64,000 bases of DNA, from NCBI GenBank assembly GCA_900553785.1, contig USES01000001.1:45995-109994 (forward strand), given 5' to 3'. The position numbers and the translations under genes were made by a program. Shown in pieces: positions 2,926 to 41,230 of the stretch. This stretch comes from an uncultured Clostridium sp. (lineage in GTDB: Bacteria; Bacillota; Clostridia; TANB77; CAG-465). The stretch's first letter is position 1, and every line of letters begins with the position of its first letter. A model generated the notes under the pieces. It saw nothing but the letters and a program-made list of their open reading frames with translations. It ran no database searches and was not told the DNA's origin.

Positions 2926-5652
2926 ATGGAAAATAAAGAAGAAATAAAAGAAAATAGCTTTCTTATAATTGATGGAAACAGCATAATGAATAGGGCATTT
3001 TATGGAATAAAGTTACTTGCTACAAAAGATGGACTATATACAAATGCAATATATGGTTTTTTGAACATATATTTTATGATGCAAGAGAAACTTAGTCCTA
3101 AGTATGTTGCTGTTGCATTTGATGTGAGTGCACCAACATTTAGACATGAAATGTATAGTGAATATAAAGCTGGACGTCATGCAATGCCGGTGGAATTAAA
3201 GTCACAAATGCCACTTATAAAAGAAGTGCTTGATGCGCTTAATATTCCTATACTAGAAAAAGAAGGCTTTGAAGCAGATGATATTTTAGGTACAATTGCT
3301 GCTAGAAACACTGAAAATGGCATACCTACATATATACTTACTGGAGATAGAGATTCATTTCAGCTTATTTCAGACACAGCCACTGTAGTTTTACCAACAA
3401 CTAAACTGGGAAAAACGGAGTATACGTATTATACACCAGAACTGTTATATGAAAAGTATTCTGTAAAACCAAATCAAGTCCCGGATGTAAAAGCTCTTAT
3501 GGGAGATAGTTCGGATAATATTCCTGGAGTTCCTGGAATAGGTGAGAAAACAGCCTATCCTTTAATAAACAAATATGGAAGTATCGAGAAAATTTATGAA
3601 AATGTAAGAGGTTTAGATATAAGCCCATCTGTTATGGGAAAACTAGAAAAGTTCGAAGATAGTGCAAGGCAAAGTAAGATATTAGCTACAATAAATACGA
3701 ATGTAGAATTAGATATTGATTATGAAAAGCTTAAACTTACTGAACCTAATATGCCAGAGTTAATTAAACTATTTACTCGTTTTGAGTTTAAGAAGTTCAT
3801 AGAAAAGTTTACAAAAGATTTAGATGGTGAGCTTGACATAGCCACAAACAATGAAAAAGAGTTTTATAAAGAGTTCTCGCTTACAAAATATGTGGATATT
3901 AATAGTAATGAAAATTTAGATAATTTAAAGAATATCAATGAAAAGTTTTCAATTGCAATAATAGATAATGTATCTTCTAAACTTAATAATGCTTTGTACG
4001 TATATTCTGGTAAAACAATTTATATTATACATGAAAGACTTTTTAAAGAAGCTTTGGGAGTTATATGTAGTTTGAATGTGGAAAAAGTAGCATATAACTT
4101 AAAGAAAATTGAAAGAATTGCGTTTGATTTAGGAATATTTGATTTTAATGGTTTTAACTCAGATATAATGATTGAATATTATTTACTTCATGCAAGTGAA
4201 AATAATTATACAATAGAAAATATAGCGTATAATGTAATAGATGTTCCATCACCTAAAATTAACGTAGTAAAAACAAATGTTCAAACTACACTTTTTGATA
4301 TGTTGGATTCTAACCCAGAAAGAAATATATATAACAGTAACTTATCTGACGATGAAAAAAAGTATATATATTATGTTATGTCTAGCATATTAAAAGTAAA
4401 TGATATACTTTGTAAAGAATTACAAAAAAATGAGCTAGATAAGCTATATAATGAAATTGAAATACCTTTAGTAGAAGTTTTGGCTGCAACAGAACATAAT
4501 GGAATGTATGTGGATAAAGAACGTTTAATTGAATTTGGCAATACCATTACGAGTAGAATAAATGAAATTACTAAAAGAATTCATGAATTATCTGGAGAAG
4601 ACTTTAATATAAACTCACCTCAACAATTAGCACACGTATTGTTTGAAGTATTAAATATACCTTATCCTAAAAAGACAAAATCTAGTTATTCTACAGATAA
4701 AGAAACTTTAGAAAGTATAGTAGGGGATTATGAGATAATAGATTTAGTACTAGAATACAGAACGTACGCAAAGTTGAAAAGTACGTACGTTGATGGCCTT
4801 CTTGATGTTATAGGATCAGATGGAAGAATACATACAACGTTTACACAAACTGTTACCGTAACAGGAAGACTTAGTAGTATAGAGCCTAATCTTCAGAACA
4901 TACCAGTAAAAACTGAGATTGGCGGAAAAATACGAGATTGCTTTACAAGTCAGAATGATAACTTAATTATAGATGCGGATTATAGTCAAATAGAACTTAG
5001 AGTTTTAGCACATATGTCTGAGGATAGAGAACTTATAAAGGGGTTTGTAGATGATATAGATATACATAGTATTACTGCATCTCAAGTTTTTGGAGTTCCT
5101 CTATCTAAAGTTACAAAAGAGCTGAGAAGCAAAGCTAAAGCAGTAAACTTTGGTATAGTTTATGGAATAAGTGAATATGGTTTAGCCAAGAATATCAATT
5201 CTACGAGACCTGATGCGGCAAGATATATGAGAAACTACTTAACTCATTACAGTGGAGTAGATTCATATATGAAACGCGTTATAGAAGAGGCAAAAGAAAA
5301 TGGTGTAGTAAAAACTATATTTGGCAGAATGAGAAACGTACCGGAATTGAAATCTGCAAATTATTTAACAAGAAACTTTGGCGAACGTATTGCTATGAAT
5401 ATGCCAATACAAGGAACTGCAGCAGATATAATGAAACTTGCTATGATAAAAGTATATAAAACCATAAAAGAAAGACACCTTACATCTAAACTTATAATGC
5501 AAGTACATGATGAGTTGCTTATAGAAGCTCCTCCTTGTGAAGTAGAAGAGGTAAAACAAATATTAAAAGATAGTATGGAAAATGCAACTTTATTAAAAGT
5601 ACCACTTAAGGTAGATGTTAATGTTGGGAAAACTTGGCTAGAAGCTAAATAA
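2926..5652 (+). CDS. polA: DNA polymerase I
   Basis: A 5'-3' exonuclease N-terminal domain (GDRDSFQL, helix-hairpin-helix region). The C-terminal pol domain carries motifs DYSQIELR and QVHDELL. The likely start is ATG at 2926 after an AAGAGG RBS. Confidence 0.9.
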   Translation: MENKEEIKENSFLIIDGNSIMNRAFYGIKLLATKDGLYTNAIYGFLNIYFMMQEKLSPKYVAVAFDVSAPTFRHEMYSEYKAGRHAMPVELKSQMPLIKEVLDALNIPILEKEGFEADDILGTIAARNTENGIPTYILTGDRDSFQLISDTATVVLPTTKLGKTEYTYYTPELLYEKYSVKPNQVPDVKALMGDSSDNIPGVPGIGEKTAYPLINKYGSIEKIYENVRGLDISPSVMGKLEKFEDSARQSKILATINTNVELDIDYEKLKLTEPNMPELIKLFTRFEFKKFIEKFTKDLDGELDIATNNEKEFYKEFSLTKYVDINSNENLDNLKNINEKFSIAIIDNVSSKLNNALYVYSGKTIYIIHERLFKEALGVICSLNVEKVAYNLKKIERIAFDLGIFDFNGFNSDIMIEYYLLHASENNYTIENIAYNVIDVPSPKINVVKTNVQTTLFDMLDSNPERNIYNSNLSDDEKKYIYYVMSSILKVNDILCKELQKNELDKLYNEIEIPLVEVLAATEHNGMYVDKERLIEFGNTITSRINEITKRIHELSGEDFNINSPQQLAHVLFEVLNIPYPKKTKSSYSTDKETLESIVGDYEIIDLVLEYRTYAKLKSTYVDGLLDVIGSDGRIHTTFTQTVTVTGRLSSIEPNLQNIPVKTEIGGKIRDCFTSQNDNLIIDADYSQIELRVLAHMSEDRELIKGFVDDIDIHSITASQVFGVPLSKVTKELRSKAKAVNFGIVYGISEYGLAKNINSTRPDAARYMRNYLTHYSGVDSYMKRVIEEAKENGVVKTIFGRMRNVPELKSANYLTRNFGERIAMNMPIQGTAADIMKLAMIKVYKTIKERHLTSKLIMQVHDELLIEAPPCEVEEVKQILKDSMENATLLKVPLKVDVNVGKTWLEAK

Positions 5653-5663
5653 AAGGAGAGTAT

Positions 5664-6209
5664 ATGGTGAAAAAAATAGCAATAATATGTGTAATTATTG
5701 TTACGCTATATTTTAGTATAATGTTAATTTTAAAAAACGTATTTTATCCAAAAAAATATAAAGAATATGTAGATAAATATAGCGCTCTGTACTCAGTTGA
5801 TCCGGATTTAGTGTATTCTGTGATTAAACAAGAAAGTAATTTTAATGATGAATCTATGTCTAGCAAAGGTGCAGAAGGTTTGATGCAGCTGATGCCTACA
5901 ACCGCTAGAGAAGTGTCACAAGATATAAATAGTGTAAATGAAGATGATTTTGATTTAAAAGATAAAGAAACAAATGTAAATATAGGAGTAAAATACTTGT
6001 CATACCTTATAGAAAGGTACAATGGAAACATGTATATAGCACTTGCTGCGTATAATGCAGGACTTGGAAATGTAGATAAATGGTTTAAAGAGGATATTTT
6101 AAGTTACGATAGTTATGAAAAAATACTAAAAAATATCAAGTTCAATGAAACTAAAAGGTATGTGTCAAATGTTATAAAATACTATAACATGTACAAAAAA
6201 TTGTATTAA
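5664..6209 (+). CDS. Lytic transglycosylase (SLT domain) with N-terminal membrane anchor
   Basis: N-terminal TM helix. An SLT signature (ESNFNDESMSSKGAEGLMQLMPTTA, AYNAG). Confidence 0.75.
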   Translation: MVKKIAIICVIIVTLYFSIMLILKNVFYPKKYKEYVDKYSALYSVDPDLVYSVIKQESNFNDESMSSKGAEGLMQLMPTTAREVSQDINSVNEDDFDLKDKETNVNIGVKYLSYLIERYNGNMYIALAAYNAGLGNVDKWFKEDILSYDSYEKILKNIKFNETKRYVSNVIKYYNMYKKLY

Positions 6210-18829: not shown

Positions 18830-19547
18830 TTTCTTGGATTTATTCCAGGGAACTTTTTTATTGCAATTCGGGTTGACATAATTTATACAAAGCGCTAAAC
18901 AAGTACATTAATTCATTATTAAAACGTGAATTAGCAAAACAAAATAGTTTTAGTATAATTGTACCAGAAGACTCAAAAGTAAGAGATAAAGAAAGTACAT
19001 GATTAAAGTAGATAGTAGAAGAAACTGATATATGGGAATACTTTAAAAAAGATGATTTTGAAAAAACGTATAATGTTATATTTAGATTGCAAGAATGAAA
19101 GTATGTATAAAGACTATAATAATTTTGAATGTTATACAAATAGAAAAGACTAGTGTAGAAAGTAATAGCATAGCTTGATAGAGGATACAACAAAAAAAGA
19201 TTATATTGAGTTATGTTATTTCGCAAAATAGATATTTTGTTACTTTTAGAGAAGGAACTATTGCAAATTACCTCTTTTTCTGATATTATATAGCTATCAA
19301 TACAACTTGTATCATAATTTACAAATTTATATATATTATATATTTAAATATATTTATTTTCAACTCTTCTTAAGCACAATACTTTTATATCATACTATAA
19401 TATATATATAATTTATATTTATTATATTTTATCTATAAAATTTTCGACGTTTTTTAGTAATCCGCTCCCATATATTAAATTTTCTCGTATTTGACAAAAT
19501 GGCACTATTTTTTAGAGGTAAAACTATATGGATAACATATCAAAAGT

Positions 19548-19579
19548 GTCTTAAAATCGATTCTAGAGCGTCGCTTTTT
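19548..19579 (+). repeat. Direct repeat copy 1 (GTCTTAAAATCGATTCTAGAGCGTCGCTTTTT)
   Basis: Near-identical to 20583-20615. It contains the small palindromes AATCGATT and TCTAGA and includes the xer 5' UTR. Confidence 0.8.
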
Positions 19580-19589
19580 GGAGGTTTTT

Positions 19590-20540
19590 ATGAAAAAAAC
19601 AGAGTTTGATGATGTTCCTGTTATAATGCAAGATTTTTTGAAAAATTACTTAACTGTTGCTAAAGGTCGTTCAGATTTAACTGTTAGCGAATATTATTAT
19701 GACTTAAGAGACATATTTAAGTTTATAAAGCGAGATAAATTTAATATTAAAGTTGATGATTACAAAGAAATAAATATTTCAGATTTAGATATGGATTTTT
19801 TTAAATCTATAACTACGGATGAACTTTACGAATATTTGTTCGCACATTCAAATAAAGCCGTTTCAAGGGCCAGAAAAATTTCATCAATGAAAACTTTTTT
19901 TAATTATTTATGCAATATAAAAAAAATAATAGATAAAAATCCTTGCATAGGATTAGAAGGACCAAAATTAGAAAGTAGATTACCAAAATATTTACAATTA
20001 GATGAGGCCCTCTCTCTCCTACACTCAGTTGACGGAGAATTTAAAGAGCGTGACACAGCGATCCTTACTATATTCTTAAATTGCGGTCTGCGTTTATCTG
20101 AATTAGTAAATATTAACTTATGTGATATTAAAAATAACACACTTACTATTATAGGTAAAGGAAATAAAGAGCGTAGCATATATCTTAATGAGGCTTGTCA
20201 GAAAGCAATAAAAGAATATATGCTTGTAAGACCAATAGATAATGTTAAAGATAAAAATGCTTTGTTTTTAAGTAAGCAAAACAGAAGGATTAGTCCAAGA
20301 ATGGTAGAGTTGCTTGTTAAGAAATATATTCAACTTGCAGGTTTAGATACTAGAAAGTATACCCCTCATAAACTAAGACATACAGCAGCTACTCTTATGC
20401 ATAAATATGGTAACGTAGATGTTTTAACATTGCAACAAATTTTGGGGCACGAAAGTATAGCTACAACTCAAATATATACTCACATAGATCGTGAAGATGT
20501 AAAGCAAGCACTTGAAAGTAATCCACTGAACAAAATATAG
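19590..20540 (+). CDS. Tyrosine site-specific recombinase, XerC/XerD-like
   Basis: An N-terminal core-binding domain. The C-terminal catalytic region carries HKLRHTAAT...LGHESIATTQIYTHI (R..H..R..Y). A GGAGG RBS precedes the ATG at 19590. Confidence 0.85.
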   Translation: MKKTEFDDVPVIMQDFLKNYLTVAKGRSDLTVSEYYYDLRDIFKFIKRDKFNIKVDDYKEINISDLDMDFFKSITTDELYEYLFAHSNKAVSRARKISSMKTFFNYLCNIKKIIDKNPCIGLEGPKLESRLPKYLQLDEALSLLHSVDGEFKERDTAILTIFLNCGLRLSELVNINLCDIKNNTLTIIGKGNKERSIYLNEACQKAIKEYMLVRPIDNVKDKNALFLSKQNRRISPRMVELLVKKYIQLAGLDTRKYTPHKLRHTAATLMHKYGNVDVLTLQQILGHESIATTQIYTHIDREDVKQALESNPLNKI

Positions 20541-20547
20541 CTGATTT

Positions 20548-20576
20548 TAGCCATGTAATTACATGGCTAATTTTCG
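20548..20576 (+). terminator. Rho-independent terminator after xer
   Basis: Perfect palindrome TTAGCCATGTAATTACATGGCTAA followed by TTTTCG. Confidence 0.65.
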
Positions 20577-20582
20577 AAAAAC

Positions 20583-20615
20583 GTCTTAAAATCGATTCTA
20601 GAGCGCCGTTTTTTG
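20583..20615 (+). repeat. Direct repeat copy 2 (GTCTTAAAATCGATTCTAGAGCGCCGTTTTTT)
   Basis: It matches 19548-19579 with ~2 mismatches. The flanking AAAA(g/c) is also shared. Confidence 0.8.
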
Positions 20616-20669
20616 TAAAAAATAAGATAGGCACTGCAAAAATGCCATATCTTCATTTTTTACTAATTT

Positions 20670-20951
20670 TTAGTATATAGGTACTAATATTGTTTGTCCA
20701 ACATATATATCTGCACTAGACATATTATTTATTTCTTGTATATCATATATAATATGATCTATATTTTTGTTATTCTCGTCTAACATATCACTTGCAATAG
20801 ACCATAATGTTTCACCACGCATAACAACAATTTCTTTTGTTGCAAACTCTTTCTTTGCAAATAAACTATTGAATATAAAATGTAACAGTACAATAAATAG
20901 GAATAAAATAAGAATATTCTTTAATAATAATTTTAAACTACATTTTTTCAT
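20670..20951 (-). CDS. Small membrane-anchored LysM-domain protein (YneA-like architecture)
   Basis: 93 aa. An N-terminal TM helix then a LysM motif (GETLWSIA...YVGQTILVP). Confidence 0.6.
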   Translation of the reverse strand: MKKCSLKLLLKNILILFLFIVLLHFIFNSLFAKKEFATKEIVVMRGETLWSIASDMLDENNKNIDHIIYDIQEINNMSSADIYVGQTILVPIY

Positions 20952-21061
20952 ATATAATCACCTCAAGAACTATTGTTCTATATATGTATTATACAAAAGG
21001 TACATATGTTTGTCAATACTATTTTTAAATATTTTCGAATATTTGTTCTTTTTGCTGCTAT

Positions 21062-41120: not shown

Positions 41121-41230
41121 AATGAATTAGTCCTCCTTAAAAATTATTTTATAAGATTCGTAGTTTAAACTACAATTTAATTATAACATATTACAGATAT
41201 TATGTAAAGTATAATGAATAGTGAACATTG

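Follow-up and report, generated by a model that had tools for sequence, protein, structure and literature searches.

The window, the whole 64-kb stretch of DNA analysed here, contains a recombinase gene (xer) between two direct repeats, which are two copies of an element designated E, with a palindromic site designated X further upstream. The features of this region are as follows.

19216..19243, no strand assigned: site X, a 28-base palindrome, TTATTTCGCAAAA-TAGATA-TTTTGTTAC, which is a prophage attachment site in sister strains; left arm ending in CGCAAAA (19222-19228), centre TAGATA (19229-19234), right arm TTTTGTTAC (19235-19243)
19261..19289, plus strand: sigma-70-type promoter-like site, TTGCAA and TATTAT hexamers 17 nt apart, the second preceded by TG; a consensus scan match only
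19498..19588, plus strand: E copy 1, core at 19548-19570, the conserved leader that runs up to the xer RBS (nhmmer E = 2.7e-16)
19590..20540, plus strand: xer, encoding a 316-aa Xer-family tyrosine recombinase (Pfam PF00589 and PF02899), with RBS GGAGG at 19580-19584
20540..20617, plus strand: E copy 2, palindrome at 20547-20570 and core at 20583-20605, between the convergent genes xer and yneA (nhmmer E = 4.4e-15)

The 316-aa protein contains Phage_integrase and SAM_1 domains, and its catalytic R, K, HxxR, H and Y residues align with those of E. coli XerD (1a0p), with RLSEL, GKGNKER, HKLRHT, GHE and IYTH all kept. An earlier sequence-only reading of this DNA had named the gene a Xer-like tyrosine recombinase. 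XerC, XerD and XerA were the top NCBIfam models, all below their equivalog cut-offs (XerC 217.5 vs 335, XerD 197.6 vs 330, XerA 191 vs 220; XerS likewise, 144 vs 267), and similarity to XerH is only distant. Homologues in the isolated-phage database share at most 49% identity and lie in unannotated faecal contigs. The promoter-like site, a putative promoter, reads from X toward copy 1 and xer, and TTGACT-17-TATTAT occupies the matching position in two related loci (L073 and L120).

The two repeats share an exact 23-nt sequence, GTCTTAAAATCGATTCTAGAGCG, at 19548-19570 and 20583-20605, which occurs exactly twice in the 64-kb window, both times on the plus strand (0 expected, 100 shuffles). The 32-bp direct repeats that the sequence-only reading had placed around the gene (19548-19579 and 20583-20615) were indeed found as described, each containing AATCGATT and TCTAGA. 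Copy 1, which had been said to overlap the RBS, stops one base before GGAGG and thus abuts it, and the gap between the end of the TupA-like gene (18829) and the xer start is 760 bp, close to the 750 bp given earlier. The two copies are similar over 71 nt at 76% identity (19510-19580 and 20545-20615), which a profile search stretches to about 90 nt (19498-19588 and 20540-20617).

The replication terminus and site X

The cumulative G-C curve of the window reaches its maximum at 20357, and nearly all large ORFs lie on the plus strand before 20.5 kb and on the minus strand after it. In 26 of 38 related loci, GC skew turns from positive to negative across E, versus 6 of 442 control positions. As this sign switch marks the replication terminus, the locus is the terminus of a low-GC uncultured gut Clostridium. 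The left replichore simply ends with the upstream glycan operon, and nothing ties this locus to the recombinase, which had been suggested to have mediated its acquisition.

A Bacillus-type dif is missing from the 64-kb window, with 0 matches to B. subtilis dif at three or fewer mismatches. A canonical Firmicutes/E. coli-type dif was also rejected, as all five weak generic-core matches in the window lie away from the skew switch, and that at 41190 adjoins a tRNA promoter. Site X has the form of a dif, being a site of about 28 bp with inverted arms around a 6-8-bp centre. It occurs once in the window, about 280 nt upstream of the repeats and xer. Related loci have a single X, 100-450 nt to the 5' side of E, and each of the 52 loci with an intact X near E has just one. 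The family follows the pattern AATTGCRCAAAA-N6-TTTTGYGCAATT, in which the arms are conserved and the centre is variable. The arms of the window X are only moderately symmetric (7/13), and those of most relatives are almost perfectly symmetric over 12-15 bp (14/15 in L046), which suggests that a Xer homodimer may act on the site. Moreover, X accompanies this Xer family with or without E, the loci L183 and L014 being E-less.

Natural insertions mark the position of X. Conspecific strains whose xer is 99% identical harbour a 6.4-kb inovirus with a gpII-like replication protein and Zot/pI, in which no integrase was recognised. Both junctions of this inovirus in L156 share the 20-bp TTATTTCGCAAAATAGATAT, identical to window positions 19216-19235. 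In another species, the junctions of a second, different inovirus share the left arm and centre, ATAATTGCGCAAAATAATAA, and more inoviruses adjoin X-xer in L183 and L251-253. This arm-plus-centre identity at the junctions shows that X is exploited by integrase-less mobile elements in sister strains and in other species. Hybrid X' sites are found 320-340 nt from E. Among viral contigs the X-like pattern gave 80 matches, mostly in unrelated GC contexts and with no Zot or Rep in a quick protein screen; of these only L183, read by hand, was used. In addition, the breakpoints of a duplication in L120 lie at X or in module 1 rather than in the E core. Each repeat had been said to carry two small palindromes resembling recombinase half-site pairs, but the prophage junctions map to the separate palindrome at 19216-19243, and X, not the repeats, is likely the crossover site. 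From the junctions, prophage insertion at X would depend on Xer.

Element E across related loci

We searched for E in 149 sequences, comprising 148 fetched loci and the window, and found 161 copies of this ~90-bp element in 119 of them. In class 1 orthologues E lies directly 5' of xer, and where orthologues are 55-93% identical the counterpart of copy 1 immediately precedes GGAGG-ATG. Many genomes also carry orphan E copies with an intact core and no gene behind them, in class 2 loci and in arrays of 2-5 copies. Overall, E occurs in 1-5 copies. E lies on one side of X, in constant orientation pointing away from it, in 49 of 52 loci with an intact X, X being on the opposite side in the other 3. 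The sequence-only reading would have been undermined had the repeat been a common intergenic element scattered through the genome; instead E is concentrated at skew-switch loci. A dispersed REP- or MITE-like repeat was likewise rejected, since the 64-kb window has just two copies, which lie together at the terminus, and E elsewhere clusters beside X at skew switches. E cannot be essential to the X-xer module, because some lineages with X and xer (L183, L014) lack it.

The E core spans 22 bp in an 8-6-8 layout, GNCTTAAA-ATCGAT-TYTAGRGC, which is kept in both copies of the window and appears related in form to X. The two sites are alike at 12 of 22 positions, mostly in A/T tracts, and this likeness could be of chance origin. 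Two variants of E, alpha and beta, have the left arm and centre in common and differ in the right arm, and phased T-tracts follow the core in the alignment. The core also adjoins other tyrosine recombinase genes and lies at a shared junction of mobile-element contigs; the isolated-phage database returned only short chance matches to E. The core is probably a recombinase-binding site. As a lead only, none of the known operator motifs of cre, CodY, Zur, CtsR and LexA appears to fit it. Module 1 may resemble the B. subtilis Ter consensus.

E might also be the site of a terminus-organising protein unrelated to recombinases, such as a polar, Ter-like replication-fork barrier or a site to which a chromosome-organising protein binds. 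Such a role would account for why E keeps to one side of dif in one orientation, and the one-sided, constant placement, the 1-5 copies per locus and the phased T-tracts are consistent with it. A comparable layout is known in E. coli and B. subtilis, where a ter site lies within the promoter of the terminator-protein gene (PMC10331603). However, no candidate E-binding protein is conserved nearby, a fork trap would need sites of opposite orientation flanking dif, which were not seen, and E also occurs in phage and element contigs and beside unrelated recombinase genes. We therefore consider this explanation very unlikely.

The possibility that E works as RNA, regulating xer through a hairpin (A-run, stem, U-run) that serves as leader, attenuator or terminator, with copy 2 as a bidirectional terminator, was largely refuted and is highly improbable. 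Copy 1 does lie between the promoter-like site and the RBS, the consensus allows a weak hairpin with A and U runs, and the perfect 24-nt palindrome that precedes the core of copy 2 (20547-20570) folds strongly (z = -3.75). Nevertheless, RNAalifold returned an empty consensus on both strands for 106 unique E copies, the putative stem showed no covariation, and single copies did not fold better than their shuffled versions (z from +0.4 to -1.0). The hairpin is broken by the window's own C variant and by the beta variant. Rfam gave no credible match, the sole one being a microRNA family (E = 0.61) far under its gathering score and outside both copies. Thus, a structured cis-regulatory RNA or intrinsic terminator was rejected for the repeat. 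An integron was rejected as well, as the integrase models scored 70.6 vs 265 and 54 vs 435 and E has no conserved hairpin.

Stability of the xer unit and origin of copy 2

From its direct repeats, xer had been suggested to be a minimal integrated module with attL/attR ends, or an excisable cassette. We found xer in conserved synteny between left-arm genes and yneA-clpX-clpP-tig, in orthologues of 48-93% identity. Look-ups via Xer and via YneA in same-species contigs found no empty-site arrangement, and all the contigs recovered (24 via Xer and 11 via YneA) carry xer. Correspondingly, the order copy 1, xer, copy 2 is kept in 16 of 16 same-species loci scanned for E. One 1,060-nt contig (L264) resembles a circular xer product, since both its ends lie in the repeat core and overlap by 24 nt. 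An assembly break explains it, because those ends are exactly the last and first 30 nt of the 36-nt exact repeat common to both copies in this strain, as a k = 31 graph gives. With no xer-less or circular form in the 35 same-species contigs, the excisable cassette found no support.

The two copies also share more than a crossover core would require, as their similarity extends over 71-90 nt and continues into the xer RBS and start codon in relatives. Indeed, the homologue of copy 2 in L245 still terminates in GGAGGTTT, and that in L002 terminates in a mutated RBS and ATGAAAAAAC. Because these relatives retain the RBS or start codon of xer, copy 2 comes from a duplication of the front of the gene and is no att site. 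These data indicate that copy 2 survives as a relic of this duplication, which has decayed further in some lineages than in others. Taken with the conserved synteny and the missing xer-less allele, this origin speaks against the attL/attR proposal.

A wider form of the same idea is that the two E copies are active attL/attR-like sites, that the xer unit of 1,035 bp, or in other genomes the cassettes lying between E copies, can excise and reinsert, and that E arrays form an integron-like platform at the terminus. Several observations are consistent with this: the repeats are direct and identical in their core, the core has the layout of a tyrosine-recombinase site, and the alpha and beta variants keep the left arm and centre while varying the right arm. 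Moreover, the E copies of L119 and L141 enclose variable genes, among them two recombinase genes, a sigma-factor-like gene and DUF2238 are inserted right after the second copy in L245, and E is at a shared junction of integrase-bearing mobile-element contigs. Against it stand the 35 same-species contigs, the k-mer breaks that account for the circular-looking contig, the RBS and start-codon remnants in copy 2, which point to tandem duplication, and the synteny in distant orthologues. In addition, the breakpoints of the L120 duplication and of the phage contigs lie at X or module 1, not in the E core. We regard active E sites as quite unlikely.

A further explanation is that copy 2 is a functionless, neutral relic of a tandem duplication, whose core was kept identical by gene conversion with copy 1, the sole functional leader. 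The RBS and start-codon remnants downstream of copy 2 in L245 and L002 fit this, as does the absence of a second copy from many orthologues (such as L004, L009 and L255). So does the closer likeness of copies within a genome than of orthologous copies in L002, L245 and L265. Both copies contain TTCGAAAAGTG in the L265 lineage and have a 36-nt exact repeat in common in the L264 strain, and gene conversion could lie partly behind the identity of the cores. The two cores of L245 differ at 2 positions. On the other hand, class 2 loci and arrays of 2-5 copies still hold orphan E copies whose core is intact. In the window itself, the left flanks of the two copies match at only 24 of 47 positions (51%), yet their cores are identical at 24 of 26, and by simple arithmetic the chance of 23 identical bases would be about 1e-6 if the core had diverged like the flank. 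A wholly neutral copy 2 is therefore unlikely.

A putative dif-plus-Xer module at the terminus

The explanation that we favour, with a probability of roughly 0.6, is a dif-plus-Xer module at the terminus, in which the recombinase is a chromosomal Xer, X is the crossover site, and E is a leader plus a duplicated relic with a binding-site core. With Xer dimers on its two inverted arms, X would undergo strand exchange across the 6-bp centre, resolving chromosome dimers, and integrase-less filamentous phages may hijack this reaction for integration. In this clade E accompanies X on one side, and copy 1 is the conserved leader that abuts the xer RBS. The core of E would most likely be bound, as double-stranded DNA, by a tyrosine recombinase, perhaps as an auxiliary or autoregulatory Xer site, which some phages and elements with their own integrases may also use. 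The two E copies of the window do not behave like a pair of active excision sites. Counting against this explanation are the moderate arm symmetry of the window X, the possibly chance likeness between the E core and X, the X-xer lineages that lack E, a possible share of gene conversion in the identity of the cores, and the two positions at which the cores of L245 differ. The sequence-only interpretation is thus partly supported. Its option of a duplicated dif-like or autoregulatory site came closest, in that the gene is a Xer at the terminus and the repeat is conserved in the dif-xer module, but crossover maps elsewhere, at X.

More tentatively, and in our view improbable as a whole, X and E may form a two-part terminus module new to science. 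X would be a palindromic dif with one Xer, and E a related 8-6-8 site with an invariant ATCGAT, which Xer would use as an accessory or landing site and which would also give phages and small elements with their own integrases a platform for stacking cassettes. If so, the terminus of gut Clostridia would carry an integron-like accessory region, of which the E-bracketed xer is one unit.

The favoured dif-plus-Xer module resembles XerS/difSL of streptococci and lactococci and XerH/difH of Helicobacter and Campylobacter, and is apparently undescribed in Clostridia. In both systems xer lies beside a terminus site of about 28-31 bp, with inverted arms ending in A-runs and T-runs and a 6-8-bp centre, and dif is always near xer in these systems (PMC9765430). 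In contrast, the protein described here scores 144 bits against the XerS cut-off of 267 and is distant from XerH. The sequence of X differs from those of difSL and difH, and its arms in most relatives are near-perfectly symmetric over 12-15 bp. X also lies about 280 nt upstream of xer with a conserved E in between, and the likeness to single-recombinase systems is putative. The dif of Legionella, used by XerL, was likewise found via the attachment site of a mobile element, LME-1, near the terminus, and has long uninterrupted inverted arms and one recombinase (PMC9765430). However, xerL is more than 400 kb from dif (PMC9765430), whereas xer here is adjacent to its site. Phylum and sequence differ as well, and the integrated elements are filamentous phages.

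The prophages at X share with CTXphi-type IMEXs the lack of a recognised integrase and the position at a terminus site, and in both cases attP shares one arm and the central region with the host site, the other arm differs, and an intact site is regenerated on one side. Their hosts are, in contrast, Gram-positive gut Clostridia, and their target is X rather than a XerC/XerD dif. For E, the plasmid Xer sites cer and psi offer an analogy only, having extra conserved protein-binding DNA on one side of the crossover core in fixed orientation, which is reported to impose resolution selectivity (bioRxiv 10.64898/2026.02.23.706985). In the TnpI site of Tn4430, accessory repeats likewise form conserved protein-binding DNA beside the core. 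Unlike in these sites, the distance between E and X varies from 100 to 450 nt, the copies number 1-5, and E is missing in some X-xer lineages. Acinetobacter pdif modules also have a gene bracketed by two short recombinase-target-like sites. Those modules move between plasmids and have true XerC/XerD sites in inverted order, whereas the sites here are direct and not of dif sequence, and the gene stays put. Direct repeats around a recombinase gene are no proof of a mobile cassette, a warning for annotation.

To our knowledge, chromosome dimer resolution is near-universal and few non-canonical Xer/dif systems are known, namely those of XerS, XerH, XerA and XerL. The present locus points to another, in abundant uncultured low-GC gut Clostridia. 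X is recognisable by sequence, and natural insertions of filamentous phages mark its crossover position. It would help to place replication termini in metagenome-assembled genomes, predict where gut inoviruses integrate and supply a small, testable recombinase-site pair. E, present in 1-5 copies and also on mobile elements, could throw light on the regulation of a single Xer or on the build-up of accessory DNA at the terminus.

The recombinase gene and its flanking repeats

Alignment of the 316-aa Xer protein with E. coli XerD showed that every catalytic residue is kept. Its top-scoring models were XerC, XerD and XerA, each scoring below the equivalog cut-off, which places Xer outside the XerC, XerD, XerS and XerA equivalogs; the public annotation of close relatives is XerC. 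On the opposite strand 3' of xer lie a YneA-type LysM protein gene and then clpX, clpP and tig. The main features are as follows.

19216-19243: 28-bp palindrome X, TTATTTCGCAAAA-TAGATA-TTTTGTTAC, prophage attachment site
19261-19289: promoter-like site immediately right of X, position conserved in relatives
19590-20540, + strand: xer (Phage_integrase and SAM-like domains), RBS GGAGG at 19580-19584
20670-21048, - strand: yneA-type SOS cell-division inhibitor gene (93 aa) with its promoter and LexA/Cheo-like boxes

Transcription from the promoter-like site would give xer an AT-rich leader of ~290 nt ending in copy 1, the first of the two repeats. The yneA-type gene has a perfect TTGACA-17-TATAAT promoter at 21016-20988, with putative LexA/Cheo-like boxes nearby (GAACTATTGTTC at 20967-20978 and CGAATATTTGTTC at 21036-21048). 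A third such box, CGAATATTTGTTCG at 19829-19842 within the xer coding sequence, could be a chance match or an internal LexA site.

The direct repeats described around the recombinase gene in the sequence-only reading are real. Indeed, GTCTTAAAATCGATTCTAGAGCG occurs exactly twice in the window (19548-19570 and 20583-20605), with no other match at three or fewer mismatches and no such repeat expected by chance, and copies 1 and 2 are 76% identical across 71 nt without gaps. Both belong to a ~90-bp element family, E, whose profile matches the window at 19498-19588 and 20540-20617. A 24-nt palindrome in copy 2 (20547-20570), its sole strongly folding part, probably also serves as the xer terminator. 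Upstream, TTTTCGACGTTTTTTAG at 19441-19460 looks like the E 3' end (CGTCGTTTTTT) and is possibly a decayed third copy.

Sequence of the copy 1 type abuts the GGAGG-ATG of xer in 16 orthologous loci from uncultured Clostridia MAGs (48-93% protein identity), which gave the consensus AAAAAYGNCTTAAAATCGATTYTAGRGCGTCGTTTTTT. Pattern scans added 13 loci on viral contigs and 119 on metagenome contigs, some of which are chance coding matches, and a profile search found 161 E copies in 119 of 149 sequences (148 loci and the window). There are often 2-5 copies per locus, almost always on the same strand, and half of the loci contain a tyrosine recombinase gene. E comprises an upstream module 1 and a conserved core, module 2, with an alpha (GATTTTAGAGCGTCG) and a beta form (GATTCTCGTGCGTCG). 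Some non-leader copies, a minority, have a 10+10 palindrome in module 1, TTTTTAGACA-N10-TGTCTAAAAA (15/82 form 9 or more of the 10 pairs, versus 9/530 shuffles); leader copies are at background level. A structured RNA was ruled against by four comparisons: Rfam gave no credible match to either copy in the window, its single hit being a microRNA family (E-value 0.61, far under the gathering score) at 19163-19221, outside both; RNAalifold on 106 unique E copies found no consensus structure on either strand; the putative outer stem showed no covariation; and single copies folded no better than shuffles.

Copy 1 forms the leader before xer in all orthologues with E directly 5' of the gene. Copy 2 was confined to the nearest relatives (L001, L002, L245 and L265), with a copy placed elsewhere in L003. 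Its 3' end is GGAGGTTT, the xer RBS, in L245; a mutated RBS followed by ATGAAAAAAC, the first codons of xer, in L002; and TTTTTTG, where it stops, in the window and L001. Judging from these remains, copy 2 is what is left after the xer 5' region was duplicated, each lineage having lost a different part of it. In any one genome the cores of the two copies agree at 24-25 of 26 positions, and the left flanks in the window at 24 of 47. Some lineages have longer tracts common to both copies, and a 36-nt exact repeat in L264 indicates gene conversion. One rival reading regards copy 2 as a neutral relic; many orphan E copies that precede no gene have an intact core, and the core itself is therefore probably functional DNA. 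In L245, whose xer is 84% identical, two inserted genes, one sigma-70-like and one DUF2238, occupy 4569-6121 between copy 2 and yneA, so that variable DNA begins directly 3' of copy 2.

The proposal that the repeats bound a mobile cassette found no support, as no xer-less contig occurred among the 24 found via Xer and the 11 found via YneA, and 16/16 loci scanned for E retained copy 1, xer and copy 2. A seemingly circular contig of 1,060 nt proved to be an assembly break at the repeat.

Site X and filamentous prophages

Same-species contigs, with xer 99% identical, were of two types, one like the window and one ~6.4 kb longer between the TupA-like gene and xer. The additional DNA is a filamentous prophage, present in some strains and absent from the window; its genes include those for a gpII-like replication protein and a Zot/pI morphogenesis protein, with no integrase recognised among them. 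The prophage junctions have TTATTTCGCAAAATAGATAT in common, corresponding to 19216-19235, ~280 nt upstream of copy 1, so the insertion point lies outside the repeat. X sites follow the pattern AATTGCRCAAAA-N6-TTTTGYGCAATT, with near-perfect inverted arms of 12-15 bp and a 6-bp centre that varies by lineage, and each locus has a single one, 100-450 nt 5' of its first E copy. Low-GC loci lacking a strict X have a hybrid X', GCTATTATTA-TCAAAG-TTTTGTG, at the same distance (320-340 nt 5' of E in L035, L068, L140, L142, L148 and L064), in place of the intact site. A hybrid of this kind is the trace expected of an integrated element, and it fits one lying on the far side.

A second, unrelated inovirus (5.56 kb) sits at X in another species, its junctions sharing the left arm and centre ATAATTGCGCAAAATAATAA, and further inoviruses adjoin X-xer in L183 and L251-253. 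Phages known to exploit host Xer at dif have one arm and the centre in common with the host site and a different other arm; the inovirus junctions at X show the same sharing. Moreover, X accompanies this Xer family even without E (L183, L014), and the accompanying Xer proteins are 48-59% identical to one another. Because of the prophage junctions and the association with Xer, X rather than the repeat is taken as the dif-like crossover site, and from its position, architecture and prophage junctions we infer that Xer acts on X. The earlier suggestion of a duplicated dif-like or regulatory site was partly right.

The module resembles the Legionella XerL/dif system, whose palindromic site was likewise revealed by a mobile element (PMC9765430). 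It would work like XerS/difSL and XerH/difH, with the xer gene beside its site at the terminus. No account of X, of E or of a comparable Clostridial system turned up in the literature searched.

Linkage to the replication terminus

GC skew is +0.2 to +0.3 at 1-20 kb and -0.1 to -0.3 at 21-64 kb, apart from a short near-neutral stretch at ~55-58 kb, and cumulative G-C peaks at 20357. Correspondingly, the large ORFs are all on the + strand through xer and nearly all on the - strand beyond. The locus therefore carries a replication-terminus signature, and the glycan operon is no more than the final operon on one replichore; we found nothing tying the recombinase to its acquisition, as had been suggested. 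In 26 of the 38 loci whose flanks were long enough, skew switches from + to - across E; the reverse switch occurred in none, and control positions away from E showed the + to - switch at 6/442. E is therefore terminus-linked rather than a scattered intergenic repeat. An element on the far side of a hybrid X' would account for loci without a skew flip. A generic XerD-arm pattern matches ATTACAGATATTATGTAAAGT at 41190-41210 with 3 mismatches, beside a tRNA gene and 20 kb from the skew switch; this dif candidate was rejected as probably a chance match.

Possible roles of E

Written as 8-6-8, the E core is GNCTTAAA-ATCGAT-TYTAGRGC, equal in overall length and layout to the inner 22 bp of X (GCGCAAAA-N6-TTTTGTGC) and with related arms. 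The two agree at 12/22 positions in alignments inspected by eye, a resemblance that is only suggestive of related sites. E cores also occur in other settings.

L121 9765-10985 (also L049, L106, L115, L125, L136): E core with a distant, divergently oriented 341-aa Xer-like gene
L119 6577-10026; L141 3284-10296: 4-5 E copies arrayed along a single strand, unrelated genes between
L147 4724-4804; L023 4741-4809; L017; L079: mobile-element contigs with an E core

In the first group, environmental genomes of 34% GC, the core lies 130 nt upstream of the Xer-like gene, among ruvC, yebC and rnhB, with no X pattern nearby, and may serve this lineage as a recombination site of its own. E cores flank two recombinase genes in L119, and the L141 array includes genes for a CPBP protease, a Crp-like regulator, a putative transposase (from translation only) and a NUDIX protein; these two loci have only an X-E-E block in common (93% identity), and the genes to its left and right differ. 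In L120 the X-spacer-E unit is duplicated, with a hybrid X' at its boundary. The mobile-element contigs, whose genes include an integrase, an XRE regulator and an inovirus-type replication gene (integrase and replication gene together in L023), share sequence from mid-module 1 through the E core into the XRE gene, joined to three different left flanks. These settings agree with E acting as a recombinase-binding site carried along with X; integration and aberrant excision at X would then have produced its duplicates as by-products. An auxiliary or autoregulatory Xer site ranks first, ahead of the rival readings of an active second att site, a neutral relic and a Ter-like site.

Of greater interest is what adjoins the repeats first noticed, just outside their coordinates: X and xer probably constitute a new dif/Xer module with filamentous-phage insertions, together with an unexplained companion element, E.
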